Positions 4,987 to 45,005 of a stretch of 64,000 nucleotides of DNA are shown one piece after another. This DNA is from Escherichia phage 121Q: sequence record NC_025447.1; one strand, 5' to 3'. Below the pieces are notes generated by a model. It did no database searches. It saw only the letters and a list, made by a program, of their open reading frames with translations, and had not been told where the DNA came from. How positions within the stretch are numbered: position 1 is the first letter of the stretch; each line of letters starts with the position of its first letter. Position numbers and translations under genes: made by a program.

Positions 4987-5430
4987 ATGAGTTGGGTAAA
5001 TGTTAATAGTATTGAACTTAACGAACAAGATATTTTTGCATTTGTAAATTTAACTAATAACACAGTACTAAAAGGGCGTTTGTTCAGTGCTAGTGATGGG
5101 TACAAATGGATCTCTTTGATGGATGATAGTGGTGTGATTTATAATGTAATGCAATTACCCCAATGGGTATATAGTAACACTGCTGACGATGTTCTTACCG
5201 CAGTTATGCGTGAGTTTGAAAAACTCCCAGGTGGTGATATCAAAAACAAAGTTTTTAATGCAGAACGTAAAAATTATACAGCACAGCAATTGGAATCCCT
5301 TGCCATTGCTGCTTATCAAGCTGCTATTAAGAAGCCAGAGTGCGTTATTCTTAAGTATGTACCAGACTTAAAACTTACGTTGGAAGACATGGATGCATTC
5401 ATTTTTACATCTGAACTTGAACAGTACTAA
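4987..5430 (+). CDS. hypothetical protein
   Basis: ATG at 4987 with SD GGGGA; track start 4957 is TTG. Confidence 0.55.
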   Translation: MSWVNVNSIELNEQDIFAFVNLTNNTVLKGRLFSASDGYKWISLMDDSGVIYNVMQLPQWVYSNTADDVLTAVMREFEKLPGGDIKNKVFNAERKNYTAQQLESLAIAAYQAAIKKPECVILKYVPDLKLTLEDMDAFIFTSELEQY

Positions 5431-5502
5431 TTTAACTTTGGGACAACCATTCTTATTATGATATAATGTTTTATGTCATTCGATATAAATGACAACGGAA
5501 CT

Positions 5503-5510
5503 ATAAATAT
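5503..5510 (+). promoter_or_regulatory. T4-type late promoter box TATAAATA
   Basis: exact TATAAATA about 35 nt upstream of the 5546 start codon. Confidence 0.55.
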
Positions 5511-5545
5511 TATAGTAAAATTTATCTCTTATAGGAGTTATAAAA

Positions 5546-5929
5546 ATGGTTGATAAATGGAATAAGAAAGATCCATCACATGATGTTGATATTTCTGGTC
5601 TAGACAATGCACATAAGCACAAGTATCTAGATTCACTAGGTCTTCTAAAACCAGACCAAAGTCTTGCACATGATCGTCCATCCCGTGAAAAAGCATTTAG
5701 CCTAGAATCACTAGGTCATGAGCTTAATCGTGTGTTTGAGGATCACCCAATCTATGTACGTGATATTATCGAGAAACTTAAAGTAACTCCTAAAGAGCAC
5801 TTTAAAGCAACTGTACACTCTGCATTCCGTGCATTACATGAATCTCTAAAGAAAACTCACAATCTTCGTAAAATTCATGATGAAATCGTGAATGCAATCG
5901 AAAGTGAAAAACATAAGTTCAAGAAGTAA
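5546..5929 (+). CDS. hypothetical late protein, charged (possible virion internal protein)
   Basis: SD AGGAG; late-promoter box upstream; Lys/His-rich; shares KYLDSLGLL motif with next large gene. Confidence 0.65.
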   Translation: MVDKWNKKDPSHDVDISGLDNAHKHKYLDSLGLLKPDQSLAHDRPSREKAFSLESLGHELNRVFEDHPIYVRDIIEKLKVTPKEHFKATVHSAFRALHESLKKTHNLRKIHDEIVNAIESEKHKFKK

Positions 5930-5935
5930 TAAAAA

Positions 5936-5962
5936 GGGTTGACTAAGGTCAGCCCTTTGTTG
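5936..5962 (+). terminator. intrinsic terminator (GGGTTGAC-n4-GTCAGCCC)
   Basis: hairpin followed by CTTTGTTG. Confidence 0.6.
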
Positions 5963-5997
5963 TATCATAACTTCTCAATATAACTGAGGTATCATAT

Positions 5998-6111
5998 ATG
6001 CAAGGTTTAAAATTTGTAGTTGCTGCACTCATCGCCGCAGTACTGGTTGGTGGTGTATTCTATGTAGTGGATCAAAAAGTAAATCCACCTGCACAAGAAC
6101 AATCTAAGTAA
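5998..6111 (+). CDS. small single-TM peptide (37 aa)
   Basis: not in ORF track (under 60 aa); SD TGAGGT 7 nt upstream of ATG; hydrophobic core; bracketed by two terminators. Confidence 0.45.
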   Translation: MQGLKFVVAALIAAVLVGGVFYVVDQKVNPPAQEQSK

Positions 6112-6119
6112 CAAAATAA

Positions 6120-6145
6120 GGTTGACTTCGGTCAGCCTTTTCTTT
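6120..6145 (+). terminator. intrinsic terminator, UUCG-loop hairpin
   Basis: GGTTGACTTCGGTCAGCC followed by TTTTCTTT. Confidence 0.7.
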
Positions 6146-6149
6146 ATAC

Positions 6150-6157
6150 TATAAATA
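6150..6157 (+). promoter_or_regulatory. T4-type late promoter box TATAAATA
   Basis: exact TATAAATA about 18 nt upstream of ATG 6175. Confidence 0.55.
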
Positions 6158-6174
6158 TAGACATAGAGAAAAAA

Positions 6175-7686
6175 ATGAAATCTATGGAGAGAAATCAAAT
6201 GCCAAGTAATTTTACTGATAAAAATGGTGGTAACATGGCTGGTCACTCTGATAAATGGAGTGAACGCAACCGCCGTCCAAATAGTTATCAAGCAGGTCAA
6301 GGTTCACGTGGGTCACGTAACCAAGGAACTGGTCTAGCTGGTAAAGCAAACGCAGAAGCAGGTGAAGTTAAGAGTACTGAGAACATGACTGAGCTAGAAA
6401 AGCTACGTTATGTTAACTCATTAGGTCTTCTTAACGCAACACAAAAACAACGCCTTGCTGATATGGAACGTGCTGAGAAAGAACAAGCAGTTCCTAAAGA
6501 AGAACCAAAAGCAGAAGTACCTAAAGCTGCTAACCCTGTTAAAGAGTTATCAGATAACTTAGGTAAGATCTTTGCTAACAAACCACAGTTGATTCAGGGT
6601 ATTGTCAAAGCACTACAGGCAGTTCCTAAAGAAGAACTCAAAGGTAAAGCACAAGCTGTACTTGATGTAATGAAAGGTAATAAGAGCACTGAACCAACTG
6701 AAGTATTCAGTACTATCATGCGTGCACTTGAAGGTACACACAAAGAAGATTCCAAAGAACCTGAACAGGGTGAAGCAAGTCTTGATGGTATTCTTAAAAC
6801 TTTTGATAATATTGGTAAAGCAGACCGTGCTAATGCCCAGCAAGTCAAGAATGTACTGGCTAAACTTGAAAACCGTTTAGAAGGTAAAGACGATAAGGTT
6901 AAGCTCGTATCAGATGCAGTTAACAGTGCACTTAAATCTTATGTACAAGGTGAGAAAAGTCGCTTCGTAACAGCTATGGATGCTGCATTCAACACTATGA
7001 AAAAGTATGAAGCAGAACATGGTGAGAAGGTAACACCAGATGGTTATCTAAAGCGTGCAGATGAAGAGGGTGCAGTTGAACAGAAAGATGTTGAGCCTGA
7101 GCAAGAAGAAATACCTGATACCGTTGATATGGATGGATACATTCATCGTCCTGAGATGGAAGAGTTTGGGTCAGATAAAGAAGGTTTTGAACATGCAATG
7201 GCAGTATATAAAGCATTAGTTAAAAATCCAGATTATGCTAACCGTTTTGTTGACGAGTTTGATAGTGCATGGAATAACTACAAAGAGAAAGGTTATGACT
7301 TCCCTGCTGAAGCTGCATTCTTTGAACTTGGTAAACTATTAGCTAAACATGGAATTGACGTTGGTTCATCTGATTCCGAAGGTATGGAAGAAGAACATCT
7401 TGAAATGACCGATAAATCAATTCATGAACTTCAAAAGCTAATGATGTGGATATCCGAGATTGGCAAAAAAGCAGGTGCTGATCGTAAAAGTATCAACAAA
7501 AACATTAGTTGGATTAAAGATAATGTTGGTAACAATGCTCGTAAACTTCAAAAGGCGTGGGCTGATTTAGTAAATGGTGCAGATGATGTTGACATTGAAT
7601 CACCAGAAGCATATGAGTATGCACTAACTACACTTGATAACTCATTCAAAGAGTACGACAGTGGTGTTGGAAAGGATAAAAAATAA
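6175..7686 (+). CDS. large charged hypothetical late protein (503 aa)
   Basis: long ORF behind late-promoter box; Glu/Lys-rich; N-terminal RYVNSLGLL motif shared with 5546 gene. Confidence 0.7.
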   Translation: MKSMERNQMPSNFTDKNGGNMAGHSDKWSERNRRPNSYQAGQGSRGSRNQGTGLAGKANAEAGEVKSTENMTELEKLRYVNSLGLLNATQKQRLADMERAEKEQAVPKEEPKAEVPKAANPVKELSDNLGKIFANKPQLIQGIVKALQAVPKEELKGKAQAVLDVMKGNKSTEPTEVFSTIMRALEGTHKEDSKEPEQGEASLDGILKTFDNIGKADRANAQQVKNVLAKLENRLEGKDDKVKLVSDAVNSALKSYVQGEKSRFVTAMDAAFNTMKKYEAEHGEKVTPDGYLKRADEEGAVEQKDVEPEQEEIPDTVDMDGYIHRPEMEEFGSDKEGFEHAMAVYKALVKNPDYANRFVDEFDSAWNNYKEKGYDFPAEAAFFELGKLLAKHGIDVGSSDSEGMEEEHLEMTDKSIHELQKLMMWISEIGKKAGADRKSINKNISWIKDNVGNNARKLQKAWADLVNGADDVDIESPEAYEYALTTLDNSFKEYDSGVGKDKK

Positions 7687-7697
7687 ACATTTAAAAG

Positions 7698-7722
7698 GTT
7701 GACTTCGGTCAACCTTTTTTTG
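7698..7722 (+). terminator. intrinsic terminator, UUCG-loop hairpin
   Basis: GGTTGAC-TTCG-GTCAACC perfect stem then TTTTTTT. Confidence 0.8.
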
Positions 7723-7757
7723 TAAATATAAAAGAGGAATTAAGAAGAGGGATTACA

Positions 7758-8009
7758 ATGAAAAAATATATTATATTTGGAATTGTATTATTTTCCAGTA
7801 CTAGTTATGGTGCAGATTATCATTGCTCCGTAGCAAGACAGGATTTCAGAAATGGGGATTTCTATACCACTTCATACACAAAAGGAATAATACACGACAT
7901 CGACACAACTATTGGATTTAATGCATTTGATAACAAAGATTCATATACTTCAGGTATACTATCTGAGCGTAAGACTGATGTAATGGGAATAGAAAAAGAG
8001 TTCCGGTGA
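7758..8009 (+). CDS. secreted small protein
   Basis: SD AGAGGG; signal peptide; Cys just after signal. Confidence 0.55.
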   Translation: MKKYIIFGIVLFSSTSYGADYHCSVARQDFRNGDFYTTSYTKGIIHDIDTTIGFNAFDNKDSYTSGILSERKTDVMGIEKEFR

Positions 8010-8352: not shown

Positions 8353-8772
8353 ATGAAAAAGATTTTTTTAAGTATTATTTTAGTACTTTTTAGTTTTAAT
8401 GTATATGCAGCAGATGCTAAACAGGTTGCAAATACAGTAAAAGATGTTATAGTAGATAATGCTCCTACATTAGAGGAAATTGGGGTAAAAACTTGTGATA
8501 TTGTAATATATAATTTAGTTAATGATGAACGAGTTATGTTGAATACGTATGAACAAGTAGTCCCATTGGTTGAATCTGGTGATGCTTTTAGCTTTACATA
8601 TAAAGTTAAATTAACAGGAGGGGTTGAAGTTAATCTTGACATTGATACCGCTTCAGTACTAAAAGATAAACTAGGATATGTGTTCAATCGTATTCGTGAA
8701 GAAGGTCATCTTAAGTATGTTTATGAAAGTAAAATACTAAAACGTGCAATAGTTATAGAAAACTGTAAATGA
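8353..8772 (+). CDS. secreted small protein, Cys-pair family
   Basis: SD AAGGA; signal peptide; Cys near C-terminus. Confidence 0.65.
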   Translation: MKKIFLSIILVLFSFNVYAADAKQVANTVKDVIVDNAPTLEEIGVKTCDIVIYNLVNDERVMLNTYEQVVPLVESGDAFSFTYKVKLTGGVEVNLDIDTASVLKDKLGYVFNRIREEGHLKYVYESKILKRAIVIENCK

Positions 8773-13336: not shown

Positions 13337-13852
13337 ATGACACGCATTAACTTAGTACACGTTAAAGAACTTGCTGACCAACATCTGATGGCTGAATATC
13401 GTGAACTCCCACGTGTATTTGGTGCTGTACAAAAACACGTTCAAGCACGTAAGCGTGTACGTGATTTCAAAATTAATAGTACTTATCTGTTAGGTTCAGG
13501 TCATGTGACATTCTTTTACGACAAGTTATTGTACTTACAGAAGCGTCATATTGATATTGTCAACGAATGTCTGCGTCGTGGTATGAAGATTCAAAACACT
13601 GAAGTAAACGACATTAGCGGCTTCCCTGCTGAGTTTTGTAATGACTACGTACCAACGGAGTCAGAGATTAAAATGTCTCGTGATCGTTTGATTGAGAAGC
13701 TCCAGATGAAGCCTACGTGGTATAAGTTTACTGATGTTGAATGTCCACAGTACGTTAAAGATATGCAGAACGTAAGTAGTAAGAACGAATCTAGTACTGA
13801 TATGTTCGACGAAATTGAAGAACAAATCAAAGATGAAATGAATAATTATTAA
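13337..13852 (+). CDS. denV: endonuclease V, pyrimidine-dimer DNA glycosylase/AP lyase
   Basis: N-terminal [30 protein letters not shown] and later [15 protein letters not shown] blocks match T4 endonuclease V; about 30-aa acidic C-terminal extension. Confidence 0.9.
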
Positions 13853-29233: not shown

Positions 29234-30424
29234 TTACAATTGTCTAGGTGTATCCAGTACATATCTATTTGTAGTAGGACCACCATCATCATATGTTCCG
29301 GTTGAATATATATTTTTCATATCAGCAGTTAGGAAAGTACGATACGAACCGCGATATATTTTTATTTTATCATACATAGAATATGTTATTCCTGACGGCA
29401 ATGGACATGCAGTAAATTTACCAATAGTAACATTAGAACCAACACCCAATGAACCAGCATAGGCACTCGCATTTAAACCAGTTGCATATACACCTGTACT
29501 CGTAATTAGTATACTAGATTGTGTTGGGTATCCAGTATGAATTGAATACAAAGTACCAGGTGGTAGAGTAGTACTGTTATTTCCTAAAACTCCATTAACA
29601 GTGCTAGATGTAGTGTTATTTCCCCATGCTCCATTATTAGCTAACCCACCCACTAGGAACTGACGTGCTCCTGTATTTGGATTTTCAACTAAAGCACTTA
29701 CTGCACCAGTTGAGCATCCTGTGTATTGTAACGTTTTTGTGTATGTTGTATTTGGTTGATATAAAGTATATTCATTATATGAAGTCCATGTAGTCGCGGA
29801 ACTTATACCGGATGTAACACCACCAATATATAAATTATTTTGTTTATCAAACAACAATACACAGTTATTTGTTGACTGTATTTGTGCAATATCAACATTA
29901 GGTGTGACCGCTTTTACAAATGAACCATCGGTTATTTCATAAGTAGTTCCCGTTCCATCGGCGAATTGTCTAGCACTGTTCCACCCTGTACTCCATATTG
30001 TATTATTGTCCATTAAGAAAGTAAACCACGTAGTACCTGCATACATCTGTTTAATTGAAGTACTTGAACTTTGTGTGTACAAATTTTGAATATATTGGTT
30101 ATAACTTAAAAACGTAGTAGTACTAGTTGATAAACCAATATGACTACCATATCCACAGTAATAATAATTTGAGTCATTGTCTTTTACTAATAAAGTTCCT
30201 TGTGTAAGCCAGCAATCGTTAACGTTTTCTCTAATTAATGTCCATGATTTTAATGCAGTGTTGTTTCCTCTACCGAATTTCCCAAAACTATTAGTCCCAC
30301 GTGCATATAGTTGACCATCCGTATACAGAACCACAACATCTAAATCAGTTGGGATTATTTTCTTAATTTTAAGTGGTACTGGGGCAATATTCCCATAATT
30401 CATCATTCTTGCAAAAGGTAACAT
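29234..30424 (-). CDS. RCC1-like repeat (beta-propeller) protein, paralog H
   Basis: leader MLPFARMMNYGNIAP; Gly/Thr/Ser/Asn-rich repeats. Confidence 0.75.
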   Translation of the reverse strand: MLPFARMMNYGNIAPVPLKIKKIIPTDLDVVVLYTDGQLYARGTNSFGKFGRGNNTALKSWTLIRENVNDCWLTQGTLLVKDNDSNYYYCGYGSHIGLSTSTTTFLSYNQYIQNLYTQSSSTSIKQMYAGTTWFTFLMDNNTIWSTGWNSARQFADGTGTTYEITDGSFVKAVTPNVDIAQIQSTNNCVLLFDKQNNLYIGGVTSGISSATTWTSYNEYTLYQPNTTYTKTLQYTGCSTGAVSALVENPNTGARQFLVGGLANNGAWGNNTTSSTVNGVLGNNSTTLPPGTLYSIHTGYPTQSSILITSTGVYATGLNASAYAGSLGVGSNVTIGKFTACPLPSGITYSMYDKIKIYRGSYRTFLTADMKNIYSTGTYDDGGPTTNRYVLDTPRQL

Positions 30425-30495
30425 ATTTCCCTCCTTTATTCATTATACTATATTTAATACAAATAAGAAAGCCAGTACAGTGTACTGGCATTATA
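30425..30495 (-). promoter_or_regulatory. intergenic cassette: terminator hairpin plus promoter-like and SD block
   Basis: GCCAGTACACTGTACTGGC hairpin, conserved block. Confidence 0.55.
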
Positions 30496-31635
30496 TTATT
30501 TCCACGGTAGAAGTGAATCAGGAACCCTTGTTGGTACAGTAGTTGAAGACATTCCAGTAAGATTGGGTACACCACATGTGTATAAATTATTATATTCGTC
30601 AACTAACATCGTATAAGAATAGCTCTTACAAAAACTACTAAGATTACTACCTTCTAATGCAGTAAGATCCATTTCAGCGAATGATGTTATATACATATCA
30701 GTTGTACCAATACCACATTGACCATTTGAATTAAGGCCACATGAAAATAACTTATTATTATTATTAATTATACAGGATGGTCCGGTAAGGTTTGTCCCAA
30801 GCTCACCCACCAACTCCACTTCTCCTTGGAATGATAAATTTGGAATTAATGTACTCATTGGGGCTACTGACCTATTTCCTGTACCTGCTTGTCCATAGTC
30901 GTTAATAGATGCAACTTTAACATTACCATCATTAAGAAATATATAAGAAGTTTCATTTGTATTGACTGCTTTAATTGCATTACTAATCGAAGTATCTTGT
31001 GTAAATGTGAGCAAGTTTTGTGTCGTCGTTCCTGATACAAACGTTCTACCTGCATACCAATATGAACCATCATTTAGTACTAATCCAGTACTATATATTG
31101 CACAACCAGCACTGATAACATTTTCTATTGTACTATAGGTGAATCGTGAAACGCTTGAAGTTGATCCATTCCCAAAAACACCACCAGTACCAGCACCACA
31201 GTAGAACCACTTTCCATTTTTTAAAAATACACGCATACACGAAGATATCACAACACTATCAATATCATCTGCACTGACACCGAAATCAGTAAAGTTCTGT
31301 GTTATATCAACCCAAACGCCGTTAGTGTTTGAAGATAGTATTGGAATAACAGTACGTCTACCAGTGTACCAAATAGTACCATCTTTCTTTATAGCAATTG
31401 TTCCTTGTACCCCACCCCAATATCGTGTAACATTTGAGTTGACAAGAGTCCATTCAGTTGAAGAGTCCAATGAACTATTACCACTTTGTCCATATGCTGA
31501 AGAACCAAACCAATATAGATTGCCATTTGTGTGTAAATAAAATTTGGCATCAGCAGAACATTGTAACCTGTTTTTAGGTAGAATCAGTTCAGGTGCGATA
31601 TTCCCGTACTTAACCATTCTTGCAAAAGGTAACAT
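30496..31635 (-). CDS. RCC1-like repeat (beta-propeller) protein, paralog I
   Basis: start at conserved MLPFARMVKYGNIAP (track ORF reads through the intergenic region); close paralog of K, same C-terminus VPTRVPDSLLPWK. Confidence 0.75.
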   Translation of the reverse strand: MLPFARMVKYGNIAPELILPKNRLQCSADAKFYLHTNGNLYWFGSSAYGQSGNSSLDSSTEWTLVNSNVTRYWGGVQGTIAIKKDGTIWYTGRRTVIPILSSNTNGVWVDITQNFTDFGVSADDIDSVVISSCMRVFLKNGKWFYCGAGTGGVFGNGSTSSVSRFTYSTIENVISAGCAIYSTGLVLNDGSYWYAGRTFVSGTTTQNLLTFTQDTSISNAIKAVNTNETSYIFLNDGNVKVASINDYGQAGTGNRSVAPMSTLIPNLSFQGEVELVGELGTNLTGPSCIINNNNKLFSCGLNSNGQCGIGTTDMYITSFAEMDLTALEGSNLSSFCKSYSYTMLVDEYNNLYTCGVPNLTGMSSTTVPTRVPDSLLPWK

Positions 31636-31705
31636 ATTCCCTCCTTTATTTGTTATACTATATTTAATACAAATAAGAAAGCCAGTACAGTGTACTGGCA
31701 TTATG
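31636..31705 (-). promoter_or_regulatory. intergenic cassette: terminator hairpin plus promoter-like and SD block
   Basis: GCCAGTACACTGTACTGGC hairpin, conserved block. Confidence 0.55.
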
Positions 31706-32815
31706 TTATTTTGGTAAATCAATTTTAGTAAAGACTGCAACATCCTCGATTGCACCTGGAATGGCGTAATACGATCCAGTACTATACACATCTCCATTTT
31801 TGGTTAATATCGATGTCAAACCATCACTAAAAAGAACATCCCTAATCTCACTAACTTCAACGGGTAATTGTAAATTGGTAGCACTATATATAGCACCAGT
31901 TTGAGAATTGTTTAATCCCAAACCACGGTTCGCCCCAACACCCTTCTGATATGTACTAGTAATTACCATTTGTGTAGCAGTATTTAAGGCAGGTGAATTC
32001 GTCATAAACAATGGAGAACTATTAGGCAAAGTACTTACAGGAACTGCACGGAATGTAGTCGTACCTGAACTAAGAAAGTTTGGAGTTTGACCACATACGA
32101 AATATGATGTACCATTATAGTAATTGAATGCATTACCACCAATGGCTGCATCGATTACACCAGAACTACGCAATCCCCAAGTGTTAATTTGTGTTTGGTT
32201 CCCCGTACCATGCTGTCCACTACTATTCCATCCAGAACTATATAGCTTATTATCTAATGTAAGATACATACTATCATTCGCATTGGTCATTACTTTACGA
32301 ACGTTCGTAGCACATTGAGTTAATGTGTAAATTGATGAGGAACCAATACCCAAAGAACCACGATATCCATTATCTCCTGCACCATAGAGTACTGAATTAG
32401 TGCTAAGTACAAATATTAAACCATTTGTACATACAATATTAGCAATTTCACTTACTGGTATAGCATTGGTAAACCAATTAGTCCTTTCAACTAATACAGT
32501 ACTGTAAGAAGTAGTTGTAGAAGATGAGAACCAGTACGTTTGACCTGATGTCCATATCGTATTATCATTTTTAATAATAACAAGTGTACGATCACCCACG
32601 AAAAAATTAGAAACATCTGCACTTACTAATATCCATGAAGATACCGTGTTGGTATTACCATTTCCAGATTCACCACCTTGATTTCTACCTATGTAATATA
32701 AATCATGTGAATCAGTCAATAAGAATTGACCTTGTGTAGAAGCACCAACTTTAATTATATTTTTAGGACCAGGTACAATATTTCCGTACTTAACCATTCT
32801 TGCAAAAGGTAACAT
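31706..32815 (-). CDS. RCC1-like repeat (beta-propeller) protein, paralog J
   Basis: leader MLPFARMVKYGNIVP; GSLGIG and GQHGTG repeats. Confidence 0.75.
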   Translation of the reverse strand: MLPFARMVKYGNIVPGPKNIIKVGASTQGQFLLTDSHDLYYIGRNQGGESGNGNTNTVSSWILVSADVSNFFVGDRTLVIIKNDNTIWTSGQTYWFSSSTTTSYSTVLVERTNWFTNAIPVSEIANIVCTNGLIFVLSTNSVLYGAGDNGYRGSLGIGSSSIYTLTQCATNVRKVMTNANDSMYLTLDNKLYSSGWNSSGQHGTGNQTQINTWGLRSSGVIDAAIGGNAFNYYNGTSYFVCGQTPNFLSSGTTTFRAVPVSTLPNSSPLFMTNSPALNTATQMVITSTYQKGVGANRGLGLNNSQTGAIYSATNLQLPVEVSEIRDVLFSDGLTSILTKNGDVYSTGSYYAIPGAIEDVAVFTKIDLPK

Positions 32816-32889
32816 AATTCCCTCCTTTATTCATTATACTATATTTAATACAAAAAAGAAAAGCCAGTATCAAGTACTGGCATATTACA
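32816..32889 (-). promoter_or_regulatory. intergenic cassette: terminator hairpin plus promoter-like and SD block
   Basis: GCCAGTACTTGATACTGGC hairpin, conserved block. Confidence 0.55.
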
Positions 32890-34032
32890 TTATTTCCACG
32901 GTAGAAGGGAATCGGGGACTCTGGTTGGAACTCTCACGGCTGGAACATTTCCAAGTTCAGCCAAACCACTCATATACAAATTGTTATTTTCATCAATTAT
33001 CATTGAATAGAAATTATCAATTACGAAGCCTGAAATTCGTCTTCCTTCTAATGCATCAAGAACCATTTCGGTGAAAGTTAATATATTTTCGGATGTTTGA
33101 TTAACACCACATGCACCATAGGTATTTCGACCACAAGTATATAACTTATTATTATTTTTAACAACACATCCATTCCCTTCGTTGTTGGATAAACCACCCA
33201 CCAACTCTATTTCACCTTGGAATGATAAATTGGGAATTAATGTACTCATTGGTACTGCTGATACTCTACCTACACCAGCTTGACCATATGCATTTGGTGA
33301 AGCAACCTTCACTGAACCATCATTAAGAAATATATATGAAGTACGGTATGTATTTACAGCTTGTATAGCATTGGTGATCGTATTGTCTTTTGTAAAACTT
33401 AATATATTTGATGTTGTTGTACTACCAGGAGCAACAGTATTTCCTGCATACCAATAGGAACCATCATCAAGAACTAACCCAGTACTGAGCAAAGAACAGC
33501 CATAACTTTTAACATTTTCTATAGTGCTGTATCTGAACGATGTGACATTAGCTGTTGACGCGTTACCAAATACACCACCCTCGCCAGCACCACAGTAGAA
33601 CCATTTTCCATTTTTCAAAAATACACGCAAATTCTGTCCAACAGCAATACCATCAATATCATCAGCACTGACACCAAAATCAGTGAAGTACTGGGTTACA
33701 TCAATCCAAACCCCATTTGTATTTGTTCCGATTTGTGGCATTACTATACTAGCACCTGTGAACCAAATAGTTCCATCATTCTTAATGGCAATGGAACCAA
33801 GAACACCACCCCAGTAACGTTCAATATTATTATTCACACGGGTCCATACGGTGGATGATTGTAATGAACCATTACCACCTTGTCCAAATGAAGATGAACC
33901 ATACCAGTACAAGTCACCATTAACATGCAAATAAAAACGAGTATTATAATTTGCTTGTAATCTATTTTTAAATAGAGGTTTTGGTTCTGGTGCTTCATTT
34001 CCGTACTTAACCATTCTTGCAAAAGGTAACAT
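32890..34032 (-). CDS. RCC1-like repeat (beta-propeller) protein, paralog K
   Basis: leader MLPFARMVKYGNEAP; close paralog of I. Confidence 0.75.
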   Translation of the reverse strand: MLPFARMVKYGNEAPEPKPLFKNRLQANYNTRFYLHVNGDLYWYGSSSFGQGGNGSLQSSTVWTRVNNNIERYWGGVLGSIAIKNDGTIWFTGASIVMPQIGTNTNGVWIDVTQYFTDFGVSADDIDGIAVGQNLRVFLKNGKWFYCGAGEGGVFGNASTANVTSFRYSTIENVKSYGCSLLSTGLVLDDGSYWYAGNTVAPGSTTTSNILSFTKDNTITNAIQAVNTYRTSYIFLNDGSVKVASPNAYGQAGVGRVSAVPMSTLIPNLSFQGEIELVGGLSNNEGNGCVVKNNNKLYTCGRNTYGACGVNQTSENILTFTEMVLDALEGRRISGFVIDNFYSMIIDENNNLYMSGLAELGNVPAVRVPTRVPDSLLPWK

Positions 34033-34106
34033 AATTCCCTCCTTTATTCATTATACTATATTTAATACAAAAAAGAAAAGCCAGTATCAAGTACTGGCAT
34101 ATCAAA
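34033..34106 (-). promoter_or_regulatory. intergenic cassette: terminator hairpin plus promoter-like and SD block
   Basis: GCCAGTACTTGATACTGGC hairpin, GTATTAAATATAGTATAATGAATAAAGGAGG. Confidence 0.55.
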
Positions 34107-35255
34107 TCACTGCAAAAATGACATATCGACTTCGGTATAATTAAGAACGTTCTGTCCAGCAATACCTCCCATTACTACAATTGAAGCCCCACAATAATAT
34201 AACTTCGAAGTGTCAGTAAGTATAAGTGAACCAGATGGGGTGCGTACCAAATTACACGAAGTATTAAACGAAGTATATGAAGGGGTATAAGAGTACTGAT
34301 TAATATTATTACCAACACCTAATTGACCAGACGAGTTGCTTCCAGATGCATAAAGTACTTCATCACCTTTAACTATATGTGACGCCATGTTACCAACACA
34401 AGTATATAAACTATAAACTCCTGAACTCAATAATGTTGGAGTTTTGTATTGTATATCTGTAGATGAAGAAGTACCACCTGTGCCAAATTCGTTCCCGTAT
34501 TGTGCACCGAACTGTTTACCACAAGCGTACAAATTATTATCCGATTTAATAAAAAATGTACTCTGATAACTGACATTACAATCTATAACATCCGAAGAAA
34601 TCATCGTCACCCCAGTAATAGAAGTTTGATTGCCTGTACCTAACTGATAGTAATAGTTAAAACCACAACCCCATAAAGTATTATCTTCTTTTAGGTATAT
34701 GTTACCAACTGCCTTTTTAACCGAAGTTATAGTATCTACCCTTTTGAATGTGTTAAAAGAATTAATGTTTGTACCATCACCAAATGATGATAGGTTAGAG
34801 TTATTGTTAGCTCCACAACAATACAATGTACCATCGTTTGTTATCAAATTTACCTTCATATCATTAAAACTACTCATGTATTTTATATCAGAAACATTAA
34901 TACCACCTGATGTTATCCATGTAGTACAGTCCGTCCACAAAGTTTTTCTATCAGTTACACCAGTGAATGCCTTCGTGTTGCCAGTGATAAAAACTTTTCC
35001 CGTACCTTTCTCTTCGTACAATTGACAATCACTACTGTTATCTTCCAATAGAACTCGTTTAACATTCTCCGCACAAAGAATAAATTTACTCGATGCTACA
35101 CCTGTTCCAGTACCCCAATTCGTCGCAGAAGATGCATACAACTTATCAGTATAAGTATCATGAAGATACATGGAATCACTGGAATATATTTTAAAACGTC
35201 CATCATCACCAGGGGCAATATTCCCGTACTTAACCATTCTTGCAAAAGGTAACAT
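34107..35255 (-). CDS. RCC1-like repeat (beta-propeller) protein, paralog L
   Basis: start at conserved MLPFARMVKYGNIAP; close paralog of F. Confidence 0.75.
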   Translation of the reverse strand: MLPFARMVKYGNIAPGDDGRFKIYSSDSMYLHDTYTDKLYASSATNWGTGTGVASSKFILCAENVKRVLLEDNSSDCQLYEEKGTGKVFITGNTKAFTGVTDRKTLWTDCTTWITSGGINVSDIKYMSSFNDMKVNLITNDGTLYCCGANNNSNLSSFGDGTNINSFNTFKRVDTITSVKKAVGNIYLKEDNTLWGCGFNYYYQLGTGNQTSITGVTMISSDVIDCNVSYQSTFFIKSDNNLYACGKQFGAQYGNEFGTGGTSSSTDIQYKTPTLLSSGVYSLYTCVGNMASHIVKGDEVLYASGSNSSGQLGVGNNINQYSYTPSYTSFNTSCNLVRTPSGSLILTDTSKLYYCGASIVVMGGIAGQNVLNYTEVDMSFLQ

Positions 35256-35303
35256 AATTCCCTCCTTATTCATTATATCATATTTACCCAATAAAGAAAA
35301 CCC

Positions 35304-39400: not shown

Positions 39401-40229
39401 TAGAGTACAGGAATGTTCACGTTTAATCAAGAACGTAGCAGTACTGATATGCCACTAAGTAGGCAGAGGAAGTCTGCCGTACTTTGTAGTTTCCAAGCTC
39501 CTTTTCCATTTTGCAAATTACATCAAATGTAATCAAAAGTAATCACGCAATGATTAGTACTGAATTATTACTTTCACCTTAATTTCAATTACCCCTTTAC
39601 CCTTCGGGGTAAAATTCAATTACCCCTTGAGGCTCCAGCAAAAAGTTGGTTAGTACTCCATCCTAAATCTCGATCCTAAAAATTTTGGAGTACCTATGAA
39701 ATAAAAGTTGGATCTTCGAAAGTTGAAATTTACGTTGGGACATATAGGATTTGTGGGATATAATGAGTTTTGTAGCGATACAGATTATACGATTTCAGTA
39801 CTGAATAATGAAAGAAAGCTATTGACATTATGATTCAGTACTGTATAATGTTCTACATAGAGAGATGAGTTGCTGCGAACAATTCATTTACTCTACCTCC
39901 TGTCGTGAGACAGTACAGAAAAGATAGTTCCTCCTGTGGTGGTACATCTTTTTGAACCTCATATGAAAATCGTAATAACAGTACTGATATTAACAGAATG
40001 GTGTCAGTACTGATTTTAATCTAAAGCATTATGCCACCAGCTTGTGCTGGTGGATTCCCTCTAACAGTATTCAGTACTACATGATAGTCTTCATCCTCCT
40101 ACAGTAACAGTGAGGGCTATTGTGGCAGTACTGAATACTCCCTTTCAAAAGATAGATCTATGGTATAGTACTGACGGATTTTGGGCGTAGTAACCCTAGG
40201 TTGAATTTAGACGTAGAGATGTCTAGACC

Positions 40230-41940: not shown

Positions 41941-42207
41941 ATGACTATTACATATTTTGCAACGCGTGAACTTGCTCGGATTGCCGCACGCCAGGACGGG
42001 GCGACGTTTAAAGATATGGGCGTACAATCTGAACGTGGTAAACGTTGGGCCGTAGTAAAGCAAAGTACAGCCCGATCAATTCAGTACTGGCGAGCGGCTT
42101 TAAAGCGTCCTGATAGTGTATCGCGTCGCGTGGTAGAAATAAAGCACGACCGCAAGGGCAATCGCGTTACCGTGTACCGTACTAAAAAGATTGCAGTACT
42201 TGAATAA
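41941..42207 (+). CDS. hypothetical protein, paralog of 53998 gene
   Basis: FATRELARIAARQDGATFKDMG..RWAV and HDRKGNRVTVY blocks shared with 53998-54393 protein. Confidence 0.6.
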   Translation: MTITYFATRELARIAARQDGATFKDMGVQSERGKRWAVVKQSTARSIQYWRAALKRPDSVSRRVVEIKHDRKGNRVTVYRTKKIAVLE

Positions 42208-42214
42208 AAAGTAC

Positions 42215-42242
42215 TTGCAAACTATGTTTAATGGCGTATAAT
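42215..42242 (+). promoter_or_regulatory. sigma70-like early promoter TTGCAA-N16-TATAAT plus stem-loop
   Basis: TTGCAA 42215, TATAAT 42237, GCGGGAACACTTCCCGC hairpin, SD GGAG. Confidence 0.6.
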
Positions 42243-42294
42243 GTTTTACATCGAGAGCGGGAACACTTCCCGCCTATAACCTGGAGTAATAAAA

Positions 42295-42525
42295 ATGACT
42301 AATATGTATATGACTGAAGTTAAAACCGTAAAAGATACTACCACGAATAAAACTACTTACTTACAGCGGATCTGCGGTGTATGGCAACGTATCAGCAAAT
42401 CAAAGTACTTTAAATTAACATCATATGCCAATCGTTCGGATTCATTCAGTACTGAAATAAAAGGTAATAAAGTACACCAATACGGCACTTATTATTATTA
42501 TAGCCTGGACGCGATTGCAGTATAA
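42295..42525 (+). CDS. hypothetical protein
   Basis: 76-aa ORF after promoter/stem-loop/SD. Confidence 0.55.
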   Translation: MTNMYMTEVKTVKDTTTNKTTYLQRICGVWQRISKSKYFKLTSYANRSDSFSTEIKGNKVHQYGTYYYYSLDAIAV

Positions 42526-42608
42526 GTAGTTTACAAATCTTTACAATTGCCAGTATTGACTTATTTTGTCAGTACTGGCATAATGTATCTATTGAAACGA
42601 ACAATTTG

Positions 42609-42621
42609 GCCCACGGGGTGC
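42609..42621 (+). repeat. dispersed CTAGCCCACNGGGTGC element copy
   Basis: GCCCACGGGGTGC followed by GGGAGTGTATCTAT. Confidence 0.5.
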
Positions 42622-42666
42622 GGGAGTGTATCTATAGAAAAAGTAGTTTATTACAGTTACAATTGT

Positions 42667-42678
42667 GCACCCGGTGGG
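42667..42678 (-). repeat. dispersed element copy (reverse orientation)
   Basis: GCACCCGGTGGGTTAG; paired with the 42609 copy as an inverted repeat. Confidence 0.5.
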
Positions 42679-42775
42679 TTAGCTGTTGTCATGGGGTATA
42701 TTATGCCAGTACTTGATAATGCTGTCAATACTTTTTTTTTACTATTCAGTACTGAAAACTATTTTTAAAAAGTAC

Positions 42776-42803
42776 TTGCAAACTATGTTTAAAGGCGTAT
42801 AAT
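42776..42803 (+). promoter_or_regulatory. sigma70-like promoter TTGCAA-N16-TATAAT driving a non-coding element
   Basis: TTGCAA 42776, TATAAT 42798; no ORF before the next promoter. Confidence 0.5.
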
Positions 42804-42809
42804 GTTTTA

Positions 42810-42890
42810 CATCAGGACGGGGAATGAAATAAGTAACTCCCTGTTAAGTAGTCCAGGAGTAAGACATACGAAAACCTCCCCTGATAAAAT
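42810..42890 (+). ncRNA. candidate small RNA or leader element (copy 1)
   Basis: about 80 nt behind a promoter, GGACGGGGA...TCCCCTG closing stem, no ATG-initiated ORF; near-identical copy at 52784-52858. Confidence 0.3.
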
Positions 42891-42893
42891 AGT

Positions 42894-42921
42894 TTGACAA
42901 AGATTTATAAAAGCGTATAAT
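42894..42921 (+). promoter_or_regulatory. sigma70-like promoter TTGACA-N16-TATAAT
   Basis: TTGACA 42894, TATAAT 42916, SD GAGGG before ATG 42954. Confidence 0.6.
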
Positions 42922-42953
42922 ACTTACATCAACTACTGAATGAGGGTTACAAA

Positions 42954-43565
42954 ATGAAAACTATCACTACTACTACTTTCGTTATGGCTTTTTCTGAACT
43001 GAACGCAGAACAACAAACGGCGGCTATCGAACTGGTTCGGGATCGGGAACGTGCAAGTGAGGATAATTTCTTTGCTGAGTCAGTACTGGAATACTATAAA
43101 GAAACAGTACTACCAGAATACGGCATAGATGAAGCTGAATTGCAATACAGTGGTTTTTGGTCGCAAGGTGACGGTGCATCAATCAGTACTGACCACGTTG
43201 ACGCTGAGAAGTTTTTACGCAAGGTTAAGGCGTTAACGAAATATCGTTCCATCCGTCACCTGTTGAACGAAGATGATTTGGAAATGAGTGTAGAACGTTC
43301 CCAATCGCGTTATGCACACGAAAACACGGTAGGCGGTTGCGTTGATACTCGCTACACTGATTTAACTGTAAAACAGGCGGCGTTAGCTGAGGAACTGGAA
43401 AATTTACTGACTGACACGATCCGAGAATTATCTTGTAAGCTGTACCGTGATTTAGAAAATGCTTATGAAGACCAGTTTACTACTGAAAACATTGTAGGAC
43501 TGATTGAGGGTAACGAATATCAATTTAATGTTATCGATGGTGTAGTAGAATCTATCGCATATTAA
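42954..43565 (+). CDS. hypothetical acidic protein (203 aa)
   Basis: long ORF behind consensus promoter. Confidence 0.65.
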   Translation: MKTITTTTFVMAFSELNAEQQTAAIELVRDRERASEDNFFAESVLEYYKETVLPEYGIDEAELQYSGFWSQGDGASISTDHVDAEKFLRKVKALTKYRSIRHLLNEDDLEMSVERSQSRYAHENTVGGCVDTRYTDLTVKQAALAEELENLLTDTIRELSCKLYRDLENAYEDQFTTENIVGLIEGNEYQFNVIDGVVESIAY

Positions 43566-43623
43566 TTCAGTACTGAATCACTGGCGGGGAATGGTTCCCG
43601 CCTATATCCCAGGAGTAAGAGAA

Positions 43624-43860
43624 ATGATCGAACAAATCAAAACTACAACGCCAAACGTAACGGGTACAGTATCACACTTCATTGGTGACGATTCGCGGGG
43701 CGTTCCTTATTGTGCAGTACATGTAAACAAAAATGGCGACTACTGGCTAACGGTTTACGGTTCTTATTCTTTCGGGCGTAGTGCACACCAAAAGATCCTG
43801 GATAAAGTACAACCAACGGGTAAAAATATCACCGCTGAGATGTTTTATAAAAAGCACTAA
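43624..43860 (+). CDS. hypothetical protein
   Basis: ATG 43624 after GGCGGGGAATGGTTCCCGCC stem-loop and SD AGGAG. Confidence 0.6.
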   Translation: MIEQIKTTTPNVTGTVSHFIGDDSRGVPYCAVHVNKNGDYWLTVYGSYSFGRSAHQKILDKVQPTGKNITAEMFYKKH

Positions 43861-43867
43861 AAAGTAC

Positions 43868-43895
43868 TTGCAAAGTAATTAGATTAACGTATAAT
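43868..43895 (+). promoter_or_regulatory. sigma70-like early promoter TTGCAA-N16-TATAAT plus stem-loop
   Basis: TTGCAA 43868, TATAAT 43890, GCGGGAATAGTTCCCGC hairpin. Confidence 0.6.
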
Positions 43896-43945
43896 ACTTT
43901 ATATCGAGAGCGGGAATAGTTCCCGCCTTTACTGAGGATTATCTA

Positions 43946-44230
43946 ATGGGTAAAGTAATTAACTATACAGTACTAAGCAAGTCATTATCTATTAGCCAGT
44001 GCACCGATGGTTTTTGGCTGTACGATGAAACGCGTGGCATGAATTTAGCTATGCAGGAGAAAACTACTGATGCGGCATATCTTAAAGCACTGGAATACTA
44101 CCAGAAGCGTTTAAAGGAAGTAGAAAACGATTATAATAACCTGAAAGCGAAAGTAGATCATTTCGTCGGTCAATTCATTGACGATGACGAGGACGGGCAC
44201 TACTGCGACCGTTGCGGATCTTACAATTGA
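43946..44230 (+). CDS. hypothetical protein with C-terminal CxxC
   Basis: SD TGAGGA; ends HYCDRCGSYN. Confidence 0.6.
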   Translation: MGKVINYTVLSKSLSISQCTDGFWLYDETRGMNLAMQEKTTDAAYLKALEYYQKRLKEVENDYNNLKAKVDHFVGQFIDDDEDGHYCDRCGSYN

Positions 44231-44247
44231 GTACTGAGGATTATCTA

Positions 44248-44451
44248 ATGAGTGATTTAATTAAACGTATCAAAGAGCTTGAAGAAAAAGAATTGCAGTT
44301 GATCGGGTTACGGAATAAAGTATTCCATGATTTAGGTGGCTTCATTAATGCCTGGGATAGTGGCGATCCTGATGCGTTACCTGCTAACCGCCAGGCGATG
44401 ATCAATGATGTGCGTGGTGTCTTTGATTATGTTTTAAAGCAATTAAATTAA
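44248..44451 (+). CDS. hypothetical protein
   Basis: ATG 44248 with the same CTGAGGATTATCTAATG initiation region as the 43946 gene. Confidence 0.6.
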   Translation: MSDLIKRIKELEEKELQLIGLRNKVFHDLGGFINAWDSGDPDALPANRQAMINDVRGVFDYVLKQLN

Positions 44452-44459
44452 AAAAGTAC

Positions 44460-44487
44460 TTGCAATTAGTTTTCAGTACTGTATAAT
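44460..44487 (+). promoter_or_regulatory. sigma70-like early promoter TTGCAA-N16-TATAAT plus stem-loop
   Basis: TTGCAA 44460, TATAAT 44482, GGGGGAAATGGTTCTCCCC hairpin, SD AAGGAG. Confidence 0.6.
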
Positions 44488-44537
44488 AGTTTACATCAAG
44501 GGGGAAATGGTTCTCCCCACTAATAAGGAGTTTTACA

Positions 44538-44759
44538 ATGGCTAATATCACTACTCTTTCCCAGCTTGAAGCACTGGTTAAATCTATGCGGGAACATGCC
44601 GACAATATCGGCGTAGAAGATCCGGCTGTATGTTTTTGCGACGAAATAAATGATGATACGCTCGTCATTGCAGAAGTACAAGACGTTTCTAACTATTCAT
44701 CGCGTTACACTGGCGGCGTAGCAAAGAAAGGTGATTTTTGTTTATATCTTACTAAGTAA
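44538..44759 (+). CDS. hypothetical protein
   Basis: 73-aa ORF after promoter/stem-loop/SD. Confidence 0.6.
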   Translation: MANITTLSQLEALVKSMREHADNIGVEDPAVCFCDEINDDTLVIAEVQDVSNYSSRYTGGVAKKGDFCLYLTK

Positions 44760-44765
44760 TAACCA

Positions 44766-44792
44766 GGGGGATCAAACGATCCCCTTTATTTT
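44766..44792 (+). terminator. intrinsic terminator
   Basis: GGGGGATC-AAAC-GATCCCC hairpin then TTTATTTT. Confidence 0.7.
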
Positions 44793-44824
44793 GCAGTACT
44801 GAATCATTTAATAGACGGATCTAT

Positions 44825-44836
44825 GCACCCTGTGGG
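44825..44836 (-). repeat. dispersed element copy (reverse orientation)
   Basis: GCACCCTGTGGGTTAG inside an about 80-bp block also seen at 42667-42740. Confidence 0.5.
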
Positions 44837-45005
44837 TTAGTGACTATCTCGTCTTTATGTAGGTATTATGCCAGTACTGGATGCAGTTGTCAAGACTTTT
44901 TTTTCAAATACTTTTATATTAAAGTACTTGATAATAGTTTTTAAACGCGTATAATGTTTTACATCTAATCGGGAATACTCCCTAGTACTAACAAAGGATA
45001 TACAA

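Follow-up and report, generated by a model that had tools for sequence, protein, structure and literature searches.

What do two highly charged proteins, encoded close together in a jumbo phage genome, contribute to the phage particle? We addressed this question for two plus-strand genes of Escherichia phage 121Q (NC_025447.1), located at 5546..5929 and 6199..7686 of a 64,000-nucleotide (nt) stretch that we refer to as the window. The window belongs to an Asteriusvirus jumbo coliphage of the PBECO4/121Q type. Over region 5400-7800, identity is 99.7% to Escherichia phage vB_EcoM_CRJP21 and 99.3% to PBECO4, and 35 jumbo phages from the genus Asteriusvirus and its relatives match this region. The first gene, which has an AGGAG ribosome-binding site at 5533-5537, encodes a basic protein of 127 amino acids (aa; 14.8 kDa, pI 9.05), and the second encodes a protein of 495 aa (55 kDa, pI 5.1); we call these the short and the long protein. 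The pair is isolated among small early-type genes, far from the 70-kb structural module, and is found in the same position in relatives. An initial annotation of the window had proposed both products as candidate late virion proteins and had suggested that they are internal to the head, as in phage T4.

Published proteomics answers the first part of this question. Orthologues of the pair have been found in purified virions of five phages, in agreement with the initial annotation, and one of them is 100% identical to the protein encoded here. In phAPEC6 virions, mass spectrometry recovered gp037c (14.83 kDa, identical to the short protein) with five unique peptides and 48% coverage, and gp035c, a 417-aa orthologue of the long protein, with eight peptides and 28.8% coverage. 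JP4 virions likewise contained JP4_541, the identical 127-aa protein, and JP4_543, the latter detected through two peptides covering 5% of its length. Homologues were also recovered from CBB (CBB_38, nine peptides, 56.6% coverage) and from RaK2, where the 20 unique peptides of gp275 were second only to those of the sheath, and GAP32_032 was flagged as detected in GAP32 virions. In addition, RefSeq PBECO4 already names both genes 'virion structural protein' (gp325, short; gp323, long). That both products are virion proteins is thus already established in the literature and in RefSeq. Label-free intensities from JP4, divided by protein length, gave a crude estimate of about 40 copies of the short protein and about 4 of the long protein per virion when scaled to the capsid or the sheath, two scalings that agreed within 15%. 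Scaling to the portal, which is underestimated about 3.5-fold, gave about 145 and 14 copies, respectively.

The second part of the question concerns transcription. Counting both strands of the window, we found exactly two copies of TATAAATA, compared with 13.7 ± 3.2 expected from shuffled sequences. They lie on the plus strand at 5502..5509, 44 nt before the start of the short gene, and at 6150..6157, 49 nt before the ATG of the long gene at 6199, so that these two genes are indeed, as first noticed, the only ones preceded by exact boxes. The 7-mer ATAAATA was confined to the same two sites, against 43.7 ± 6.4 expected. The late box is therefore strongly avoided elsewhere in the window. A copy with one mismatch, TATAAATG, is found near the first box at 5484-5491.

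To place these counts in a whole genome, we assembled the 352,598-bp genome of phAPEC6, whose short protein is 100% identical to that of the window. It contains 15 copies of TATAAATA, against about 68 expected under a first-order model, and 8 of the 15 lie 42-55 nt upstream of virion genes verified by mass spectrometry (binomial P ~1e-15). These genes include those for the major capsid protein and the scaffold, with the same box at the same spacing as in the pair. Copies are also found ahead of gp232, of endonuclease VII, of gp242 (baseplate cluster) and of the gp214c-GroES operon. The shorter ATAAATA showed a similar distribution: there were 54 copies against 235 expected, and 21 of them were upstream of virion genes, including those for the tail sheath and a baseplate wedge protein, which amounts to a 37-fold enrichment (P ~1e-27). 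Most virion genes of the phage use ATAAATA or TAAATA. The box is also kept upstream of the orthologues RaK2 gp275 (as ATAAATA) and CBB_38 (as TAAATA).

A sigma factor of the matching type is encoded as well. phAPEC6 gp237c, whose counterpart is located outside the window, is a gp55-family late sigma factor by its profile matches (phrog_12791, E = 3e-154; phrog_234, 'late sigma transcription factor', E = 8e-18). In the CBB study, ATAAATA was likewise described ahead of structural genes in CBB and GAP32, and its authors found a gp55-like sigma factor but no gp33 or gp45 homologues (PMC5259590). The comparison with T4 late promoters, at which TATAAATA is read by gp55 with gp33 and the gp45 clamp, is therefore close but not complete. 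The 8-mer is identical, it is avoided elsewhere, it stands 40-55 nt before virion gene starts and a gp55-family sigma factor is encoded; by contrast, most virion genes of this phage carry the shorter ATAAATA or TAAATA, and activation may differ from that in T4 because no gp33 or gp45 homologue was found in CBB. Genome-wide depletion, placement before virion genes and the gp55-like sigma factor together strongly support the late-promoter reading made at the outset, and the assignment of the two boxes as late promoters is well supported by these sequence comparisons.

We next consider the proteins themselves. Charged residues (K+R+D+E) make up 35.4% of the short protein and 33% of the long protein, which places them second and third among the 63 open reading frames (ORFs) of at least 100 aa in the window. 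The motif (K/R)Y(L/V)(D/N)SLGLL occurs only as KYLDSLGLL (nt 5621) and RYVNSLGLL (nt 6406) in all six frames of the window, which bears out the charge and the shared motif reported initially. This motif is part of a longer homology that extends over about 110 residues and takes in the whole short protein (BLASTP, 9e-8). Profile searches matched the short protein to phrog_16530 (E = 3.6e-56) and the long protein to both phrog_20398 (E = 1.8e-250) and phrog_16530 (E = 5e-38). In a residue alignment the short protein corresponds to the N-terminal domain of the family minus an internal stretch of 29 residues rich in Gly, Ser, Arg and Asn, and an intermediate form of 171 aa exists (P0081). A profile search with the N-terminal domain found only the pair and no third paralogue in the window or in the phAPEC6 genome. 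The long gene had been assigned a start at 6175, which would give a product of 503 aa. It most probably starts at ATG 6199 (495 aa, MPSNF...), because distant homologues all begin with MP, a GGAG sits 9 nt before it and the same start is given in RefSeq PBECO4.

Across relatives, the two proteins evolve at different rates. phAPEC6 (gp037c and gp035c), JP4 (JP4_541 and JP4_543) and PBECO4 (gp325 and gp323) have the same genes, with the short proteins 99-100% and the long proteins 75-99.6% identical; within Asteriusvirus genomes, the short protein is 93-100% identical, whereas the identity of the long protein drops to 48-87%. The 417-aa long protein of phAPEC6 and JP4 lacks an 89-residue block that is present in the 495-aa form of the window. 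RaK2 gp275, CBB_38 and GAP32_032 are more distant homologues, 37-45% identical in the N-terminal domain of the long protein, and CBB, GAP32 and Eneladusvirus-type phages have a single gene of about 170 aa instead of a pair. The family is small, with 28 cluster representatives among 1.84 billion proteins, and, judged by its named members, phrog_16530 and phrog_20398 are confined to RaK2-like jumbo phages. Neither the two proteins nor 44 relatives had a significant domain in Pfam or NCBIfam, PHROG searches returned nothing beyond the family itself, and sequence and profile searches of the PDB found no relative of either protein.

The most conserved part of the family is, unusually, a region predicted to be disordered, namely the N-terminal 80 residues. 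In the long gene, this N-terminal module spans 6199..6432. Its consensus, MP..F..KNGG..GHSDKWS..NRR.NS..AG.GSRGSRNQGTG..GKAN....DTSKM...EKLKYF.SLGLL, describes a disordered basic stretch rich in Gly, Ser, Arg and Asn followed by a helix, EKLRYVNSLGLL; W, D, K, Y and G residues are invariant and GSRGSRNQGTG is nearly so (16-44 homologues). AlphaFold2 (AF2) models, with a mean predicted local distance difference test score (pLDDT) of about 70, suggest how the rest is built. For the short protein, a disordered N terminus precedes a four-helix domain at residues 53-126. For the long protein, pLDDT is below 50 at residues 14-57 and about 80 at residues 61-90, and the model runs from a disordered N terminus through a short SLGLL helix and a four-helix core to three more helical domains, which are joined by disordered linkers. 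The core (residues 113-177; 6535..6729) is common to residues 53-126 of the short protein, and the three helical domains with their linkers fall in a variable acidic region at 6745..7683. The C-terminal two-thirds of the long protein are a mosaic: segment identities vary independently among close relatives, and whole blocks come and go. A Foldseek search with the model of the long protein gave no PDB match at E ≤ 0.001 and only family members in BFVD. Both proteins are all-helical in these predictions, cysteine-free, partly disordered and mosaic.

One explanation accommodates these results, and we put its probability at roughly 60%: the pair are two paralogous, separately transcribed late genes whose products are virion proteins of minor to moderate copy number, each with an N-terminal incorporation module and variable C-terminal modules. 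In this scheme, RNA polymerase with the phage late sigma factor would start a few bases downstream of each box, late in infection. The N-terminal module, that is, the Gly/Ser/Arg-rich disordered stretch and the (K/R)Y(L/V/F)xSLGLL helix, would dock the protein on a conserved virion partner during assembly, and the four-helix core and the mosaic acidic helical modules would be carried as variable cargo. We infer an incorporation signal with variable cargo because the conserved disordered segment and the putative docking helix precede exchangeable modules. If the proteins are packaged in the head with the DNA, this would work like T4 Alt and the T4 internal proteins without any relatedness. A bolder version, which we hold only tentatively and consider rather doubtful, is that the N-terminal module is a portable head-packaging signal of RaK2-like jumbo phages that loads exchangeable C-terminal effectors for delivery with the DNA. 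It may then be an independently evolved counterpart of the capsid-targeting-sequence system of T4, and the mosaic C termini would supply a stock of injected anti-host or anti-defence functions, or else form minor parts of an inner body.

Several observations weigh against our preferred explanation. Some proteins in the virion proteomes of these phages are plainly passengers, among them a single-stranded-DNA-binding protein and thymidylate synthase, so detection alone is no proof of a structural role. Our literature search found no Asteriusvirus transcriptome, and the PA5oct paper is without a late-promoter motif. Sigma-70-like promoter matches also precede both genes; expression is therefore perhaps not exclusively late, and some earlier expression is possible. 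Against a protease-processed protein of the head interior in particular, neither protein is similar to T4 IPII or IPIII or carries the MKTYQEFIAE leader, the N termini being MVDKWNKKD and MPSNFTDKNGG, and no L/I/V-x-E site is conserved across the family. Finally, the heads of 121Q and phAPEC6 contain a radiation-sensitive inner body, and the crude JP4 copy estimates amount to at most about 1-3 MDa, whereas a solid cylinder of 91 x 18 nm would weigh about 19 MDa; a major role in this structure is unlikely because the estimated mass is so far below that value.

The first of these points raises the possibility that the two are late non-structural proteins, acting in assembly or DNA handling, that are abundant and merely co-purify with virions. 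In keeping with this, the phAPEC6 and RaK2 virion proteomes include a single-stranded-DNA-binding protein, a RecA-like protein, thymidylate synthase and PhoH, the JP4 long protein was covered by only two peptides (5%), and phAPEC6 gp035c is annotated as 'chromosome segregation protein/SMC' (structural maintenance of chromosomes). On the other hand, five independent preparations, which represent four genera, yielded the family, often at 48-57% coverage, and neither the protein nor its 44 relatives has an SMC, Pfam or NCBIfam domain. We regard co-purification as very improbable. The SMC label, which GenBank applies to phAPEC6 gp035c, was rejected on this absence of an SMC domain. It rests on a note with E = 0.039, and the AF2 model of the long protein consists of short helical bundles, with no long antiparallel coiled coil as in SMC proteins.

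Where in the virion, then, do the proteins reside? A capsid-targeting sequence directs the packaging of the T4 internal proteins and Alt, which are later injected together with the DNA. The internal-protein loci of T-even phages are polymorphic, with a conserved N-terminal part and a variable remainder. The pair resembles them in several respects. T4 IPI, IPII, IPIII and Alt include small, highly charged proteins (31-34% charged residues in IPII and IPIII, compared with 33-35% here), and the pair, too, combines a conserved N-terminal part with a variable remainder in a polymorphic locus. The copy estimate for the short protein (about 40-145) falls within the range for Alt. The gene order is also alike. 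The pair is followed, 5.6 kb further along the same strand, by a gene (13337-13729) for a homologue of DenV (endonuclease V) that is 65% identical to T4 DenV; about a dozen genes lie between, and denV follows a copy of a terminator/promoter cassette described below. The initial annotation had contrasted this order with that of T4, but ipIII and ipII precede denV in the direction of transcription just as the pair does here, so the order is the same.

There are also differences from T4. The long protein is acidic, and both lack sequence similarity to the T4 proteins, a leader of the MKTYQEFIAE type and a conserved L-x-E site. In direct comparisons with IPII and IPIII the best BLASTP E value was 0.59, the N-terminal-domain profile gave E values of 0.12 and 0.33, and neither protein matched any internal-protein PHROG. 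The prohead protease of the phage is T4 gp21-like. The capsid protein is probably cut at MLTE/S (after the E), which would give a product of 37.2 kDa, matching the 37 kDa reported for 121Q, and the protease therefore seems to be T4-like in its action. The proteins of the window carry a few L/I/V-x-E sites, none of them conserved family-wide, in line with the earlier failure to find a convincing gp21-type site. The best candidate, NPVKE/LSD (cut after E), is near-invariant in the long forms and was rejected as a family-wide site since it is lost in the forms of about 170 aa and in the short paralogue. With no homology to internal proteins, no leader, no conserved cleavage site, no informative fold match and a low-to-moderate copy number, the proposal of T4-like internal proteins was unsupported by any test applied here. 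The all-helical, cysteine-free, partly disordered and mosaic build fits packaged proteins and other minor virion parts alike. The head interior, with packaging alongside the DNA and possible release with it, is the most likely single location, though one that we would not bet on, and other minor positions (neck, tail and fibre anchors), taken together, are about as likely.

Among those other positions is an external or tail-associated one, in which the pair would serve as adaptors or anchors of the hair-like capsid and sheath fibres, or as neck or baseplate accessories. phAPEC6, 121Q and CBB carry fibres on the capsid and at three sheath rings, and a copy number in the tens fits six-fold or twelve-fold symmetric positions. 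The lack of a conserved protease site agrees with such a location, and a mosaic, fast-diverging C terminus is typical of surface-exposed or host-contacting parts. By contrast, the predicted helical bundles and disordered linkers are without the beta-rich or trimeric coiled-coil features usual in fibres, fold searches matched them to no tail, neck or baseplate protein, and the genes lie among small early-type genes rather than in the structural module. Moreover, GAP32, which is described without hairs, has the family too. We consider an external role unlikely, although it deserves attention.

A different placement inside the head is that the pair are building blocks of the inner body of 121Q and phAPEC6, analogous to the paralogous inner-body proteins of phiKZ. 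The heads do contain such a body, and the proteins are paralogous, charged and helical, with a basic Gly/Ser/Arg-rich segment that could contact DNA. Of the forms of the late box, their genes carry the strongest, which is also the one before the capsid and scaffold genes, and RaK2 gp275 has the second-highest unique-peptide count in its proteome. The likeness to the inner-body or ejection paralogue families of phiKZ and SPN3US also extends to a shared N-terminal region with divergent C termini in a giant phage with an inner body. However, the copy number seems too low, as the mass comparison above indicates, and the protease here is gp21-like, with no conserved S/A/G-x-E or L-x-E site in the pair's family, whereas phiKZ inner-body proteins are reportedly processed. 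The phAPEC6 authors found no phAPEC6 protein with sequence similarity to phiKZ inner-body proteins, and the family is also present in RaK2-like phages that have no reported inner body. We therefore view a building-block role as improbable. As a candidate for a head component of high copy number, the 125-aa phAPEC6 virion protein gp347, which mass spectrometry covered to 75%, is preferable to the pair. Its gene is preceded, at a distance of 195 nt, by an exact TATAAATA (phAPEC6 L009:10495; record 260495, plus strand), and by JP4 intensities the protein is among the most abundant virion proteins, at about 700 copies with capsid scaling.

The late virion-protein reading of the pair is already present in the literature and RefSeq, and the products of both genes can confidently be annotated as virion proteins that are expressed late. 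In addition, 6199 should replace 6175 as the start of the long gene, and its relative should lose the 'chromosome segregation/SMC' label. The pair is also a small, tractable candidate for the inner body or the injected protein set of 121Q-type jumbo phages, with a strongly conserved N-terminal module, freely recombining C-terminal modules and its own promoters and terminators. If the N-terminal module turns out to direct packaging, it might serve to bring foreign proteins into jumbo-phage heads, a use already made of the T4 targeting sequence. If the proteins are external or passengers, the finding is one of ordinary structural annotation.

The layout of the locus is consistent with separate transcription. 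The short gene is followed at 5933..5958 by an intrinsic terminator hairpin, GGGTTGACTAAGGTCAGCCC, and a T-rich tract (-17.6 kcal/mol, z -5.0); this hairpin is annotated as a terminator in G17 and belongs to a stereotyped family. Between the two paralogues lies a conserved ORF of 37 aa (5998..6111, plus strand; phrog_35037) with one hydrophobic helix, its own sigma-70-like promoter match (5939-5968) and its own terminator hairpin, GGTTGACTTCGGTCAGCC, at 6118..6139 (-12.4 kcal/mol, z -4.6). Its product was absent from the phAPEC6 virion proteome as determined by mass spectrometry, and the ORF is probably outside the function of the pair. At this same spot fEgEco12 has two extra small ORFs. The long gene ends in a third hairpin, AAAAGGTTGACTTCGGTCAACCTTTT, followed by a T-run (7693..7718; -15.6 kcal/mol, z -4.9), which is also annotated as a terminator in G17. 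Because all three genes end in strong hairpin terminators, each needs its own promoter.

The sigma-70-like matches at the locus are putative, and in the window such matches are not more frequent than in shuffled sequences. The one upstream of the first late box (5438..5467, plus strand) has an extended -10 element (TTGGGA-18-TGaTATAAT; 10/12 plus TG in a consensus scan) and is kept in G17 and PBECO4. The TTGACT of the hairpin at 6118..6139 doubles as the -35 element of a second match, 6122-6150, and the late box at 6150..6157 stands where other copies of the hairpin cassette have TGnTATAAT. The UUCG-loop hairpin GGTTGACTTCGGTCAGCC occurs nine times on the plus strand of the window (2696, 5937, 6120, 7697, 8782, 13277, 14559, 16727 and 48923), with TTGACT in its 5' arm and usually with TGnTATAAT 17-18 nt downstream. 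By these features the element looks like a combined terminator and sigma-70-type promoter cassette.

Directly 3' of the long gene, two small plus-strand ORFs (7758-8009 and 8353-8772) have N termini resembling signal peptides. The first is annotated in fEgEco12 as a 'lytic conversion lipoprotein', although we saw no clear lipobox in it. Elsewhere, on the minus strand at 21000-35300, there is a tandem array of about ten RCC1-like genes, eight of which are preceded by a conserved box, TAAATATAGTATAATG. Hairpins of the form CCAGTACT...GTACTGG lie between the genes. In phAPEC6 the orthologous products (gp003-gp010) are virion proteins verified by mass spectrometry, and the window therefore holds other virion genes with a different form of promoter.

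We also observed a strong excess of one palindrome. AGTACT occurs 271 times in the 64 kb, compared with 22 expected (about 12-fold over-represented), and the longer CAGTACTG occurs 57 times against 0.9 expected; the corresponding counts in phAPEC6 are 918 against 101 and 198 against 4.5. By comparison, other 6-mer palindromes do not exceed 2.2 times expectation, and some are absent (CCATGG, 0 versus 9.6 expected; CAGCTG, 0 versus 7.1). We found no mention of the AGTACT excess in the literature searched. Coding and intergenic DNA both contain copies, and their density is higher at 36-60 kb; examples are at 2035, 6038, 39796-40133 and 42082-44879. AGTACT may be bound by a phage DNA-binding protein, be a target of methylation, or act as an element of promoters or terminators.

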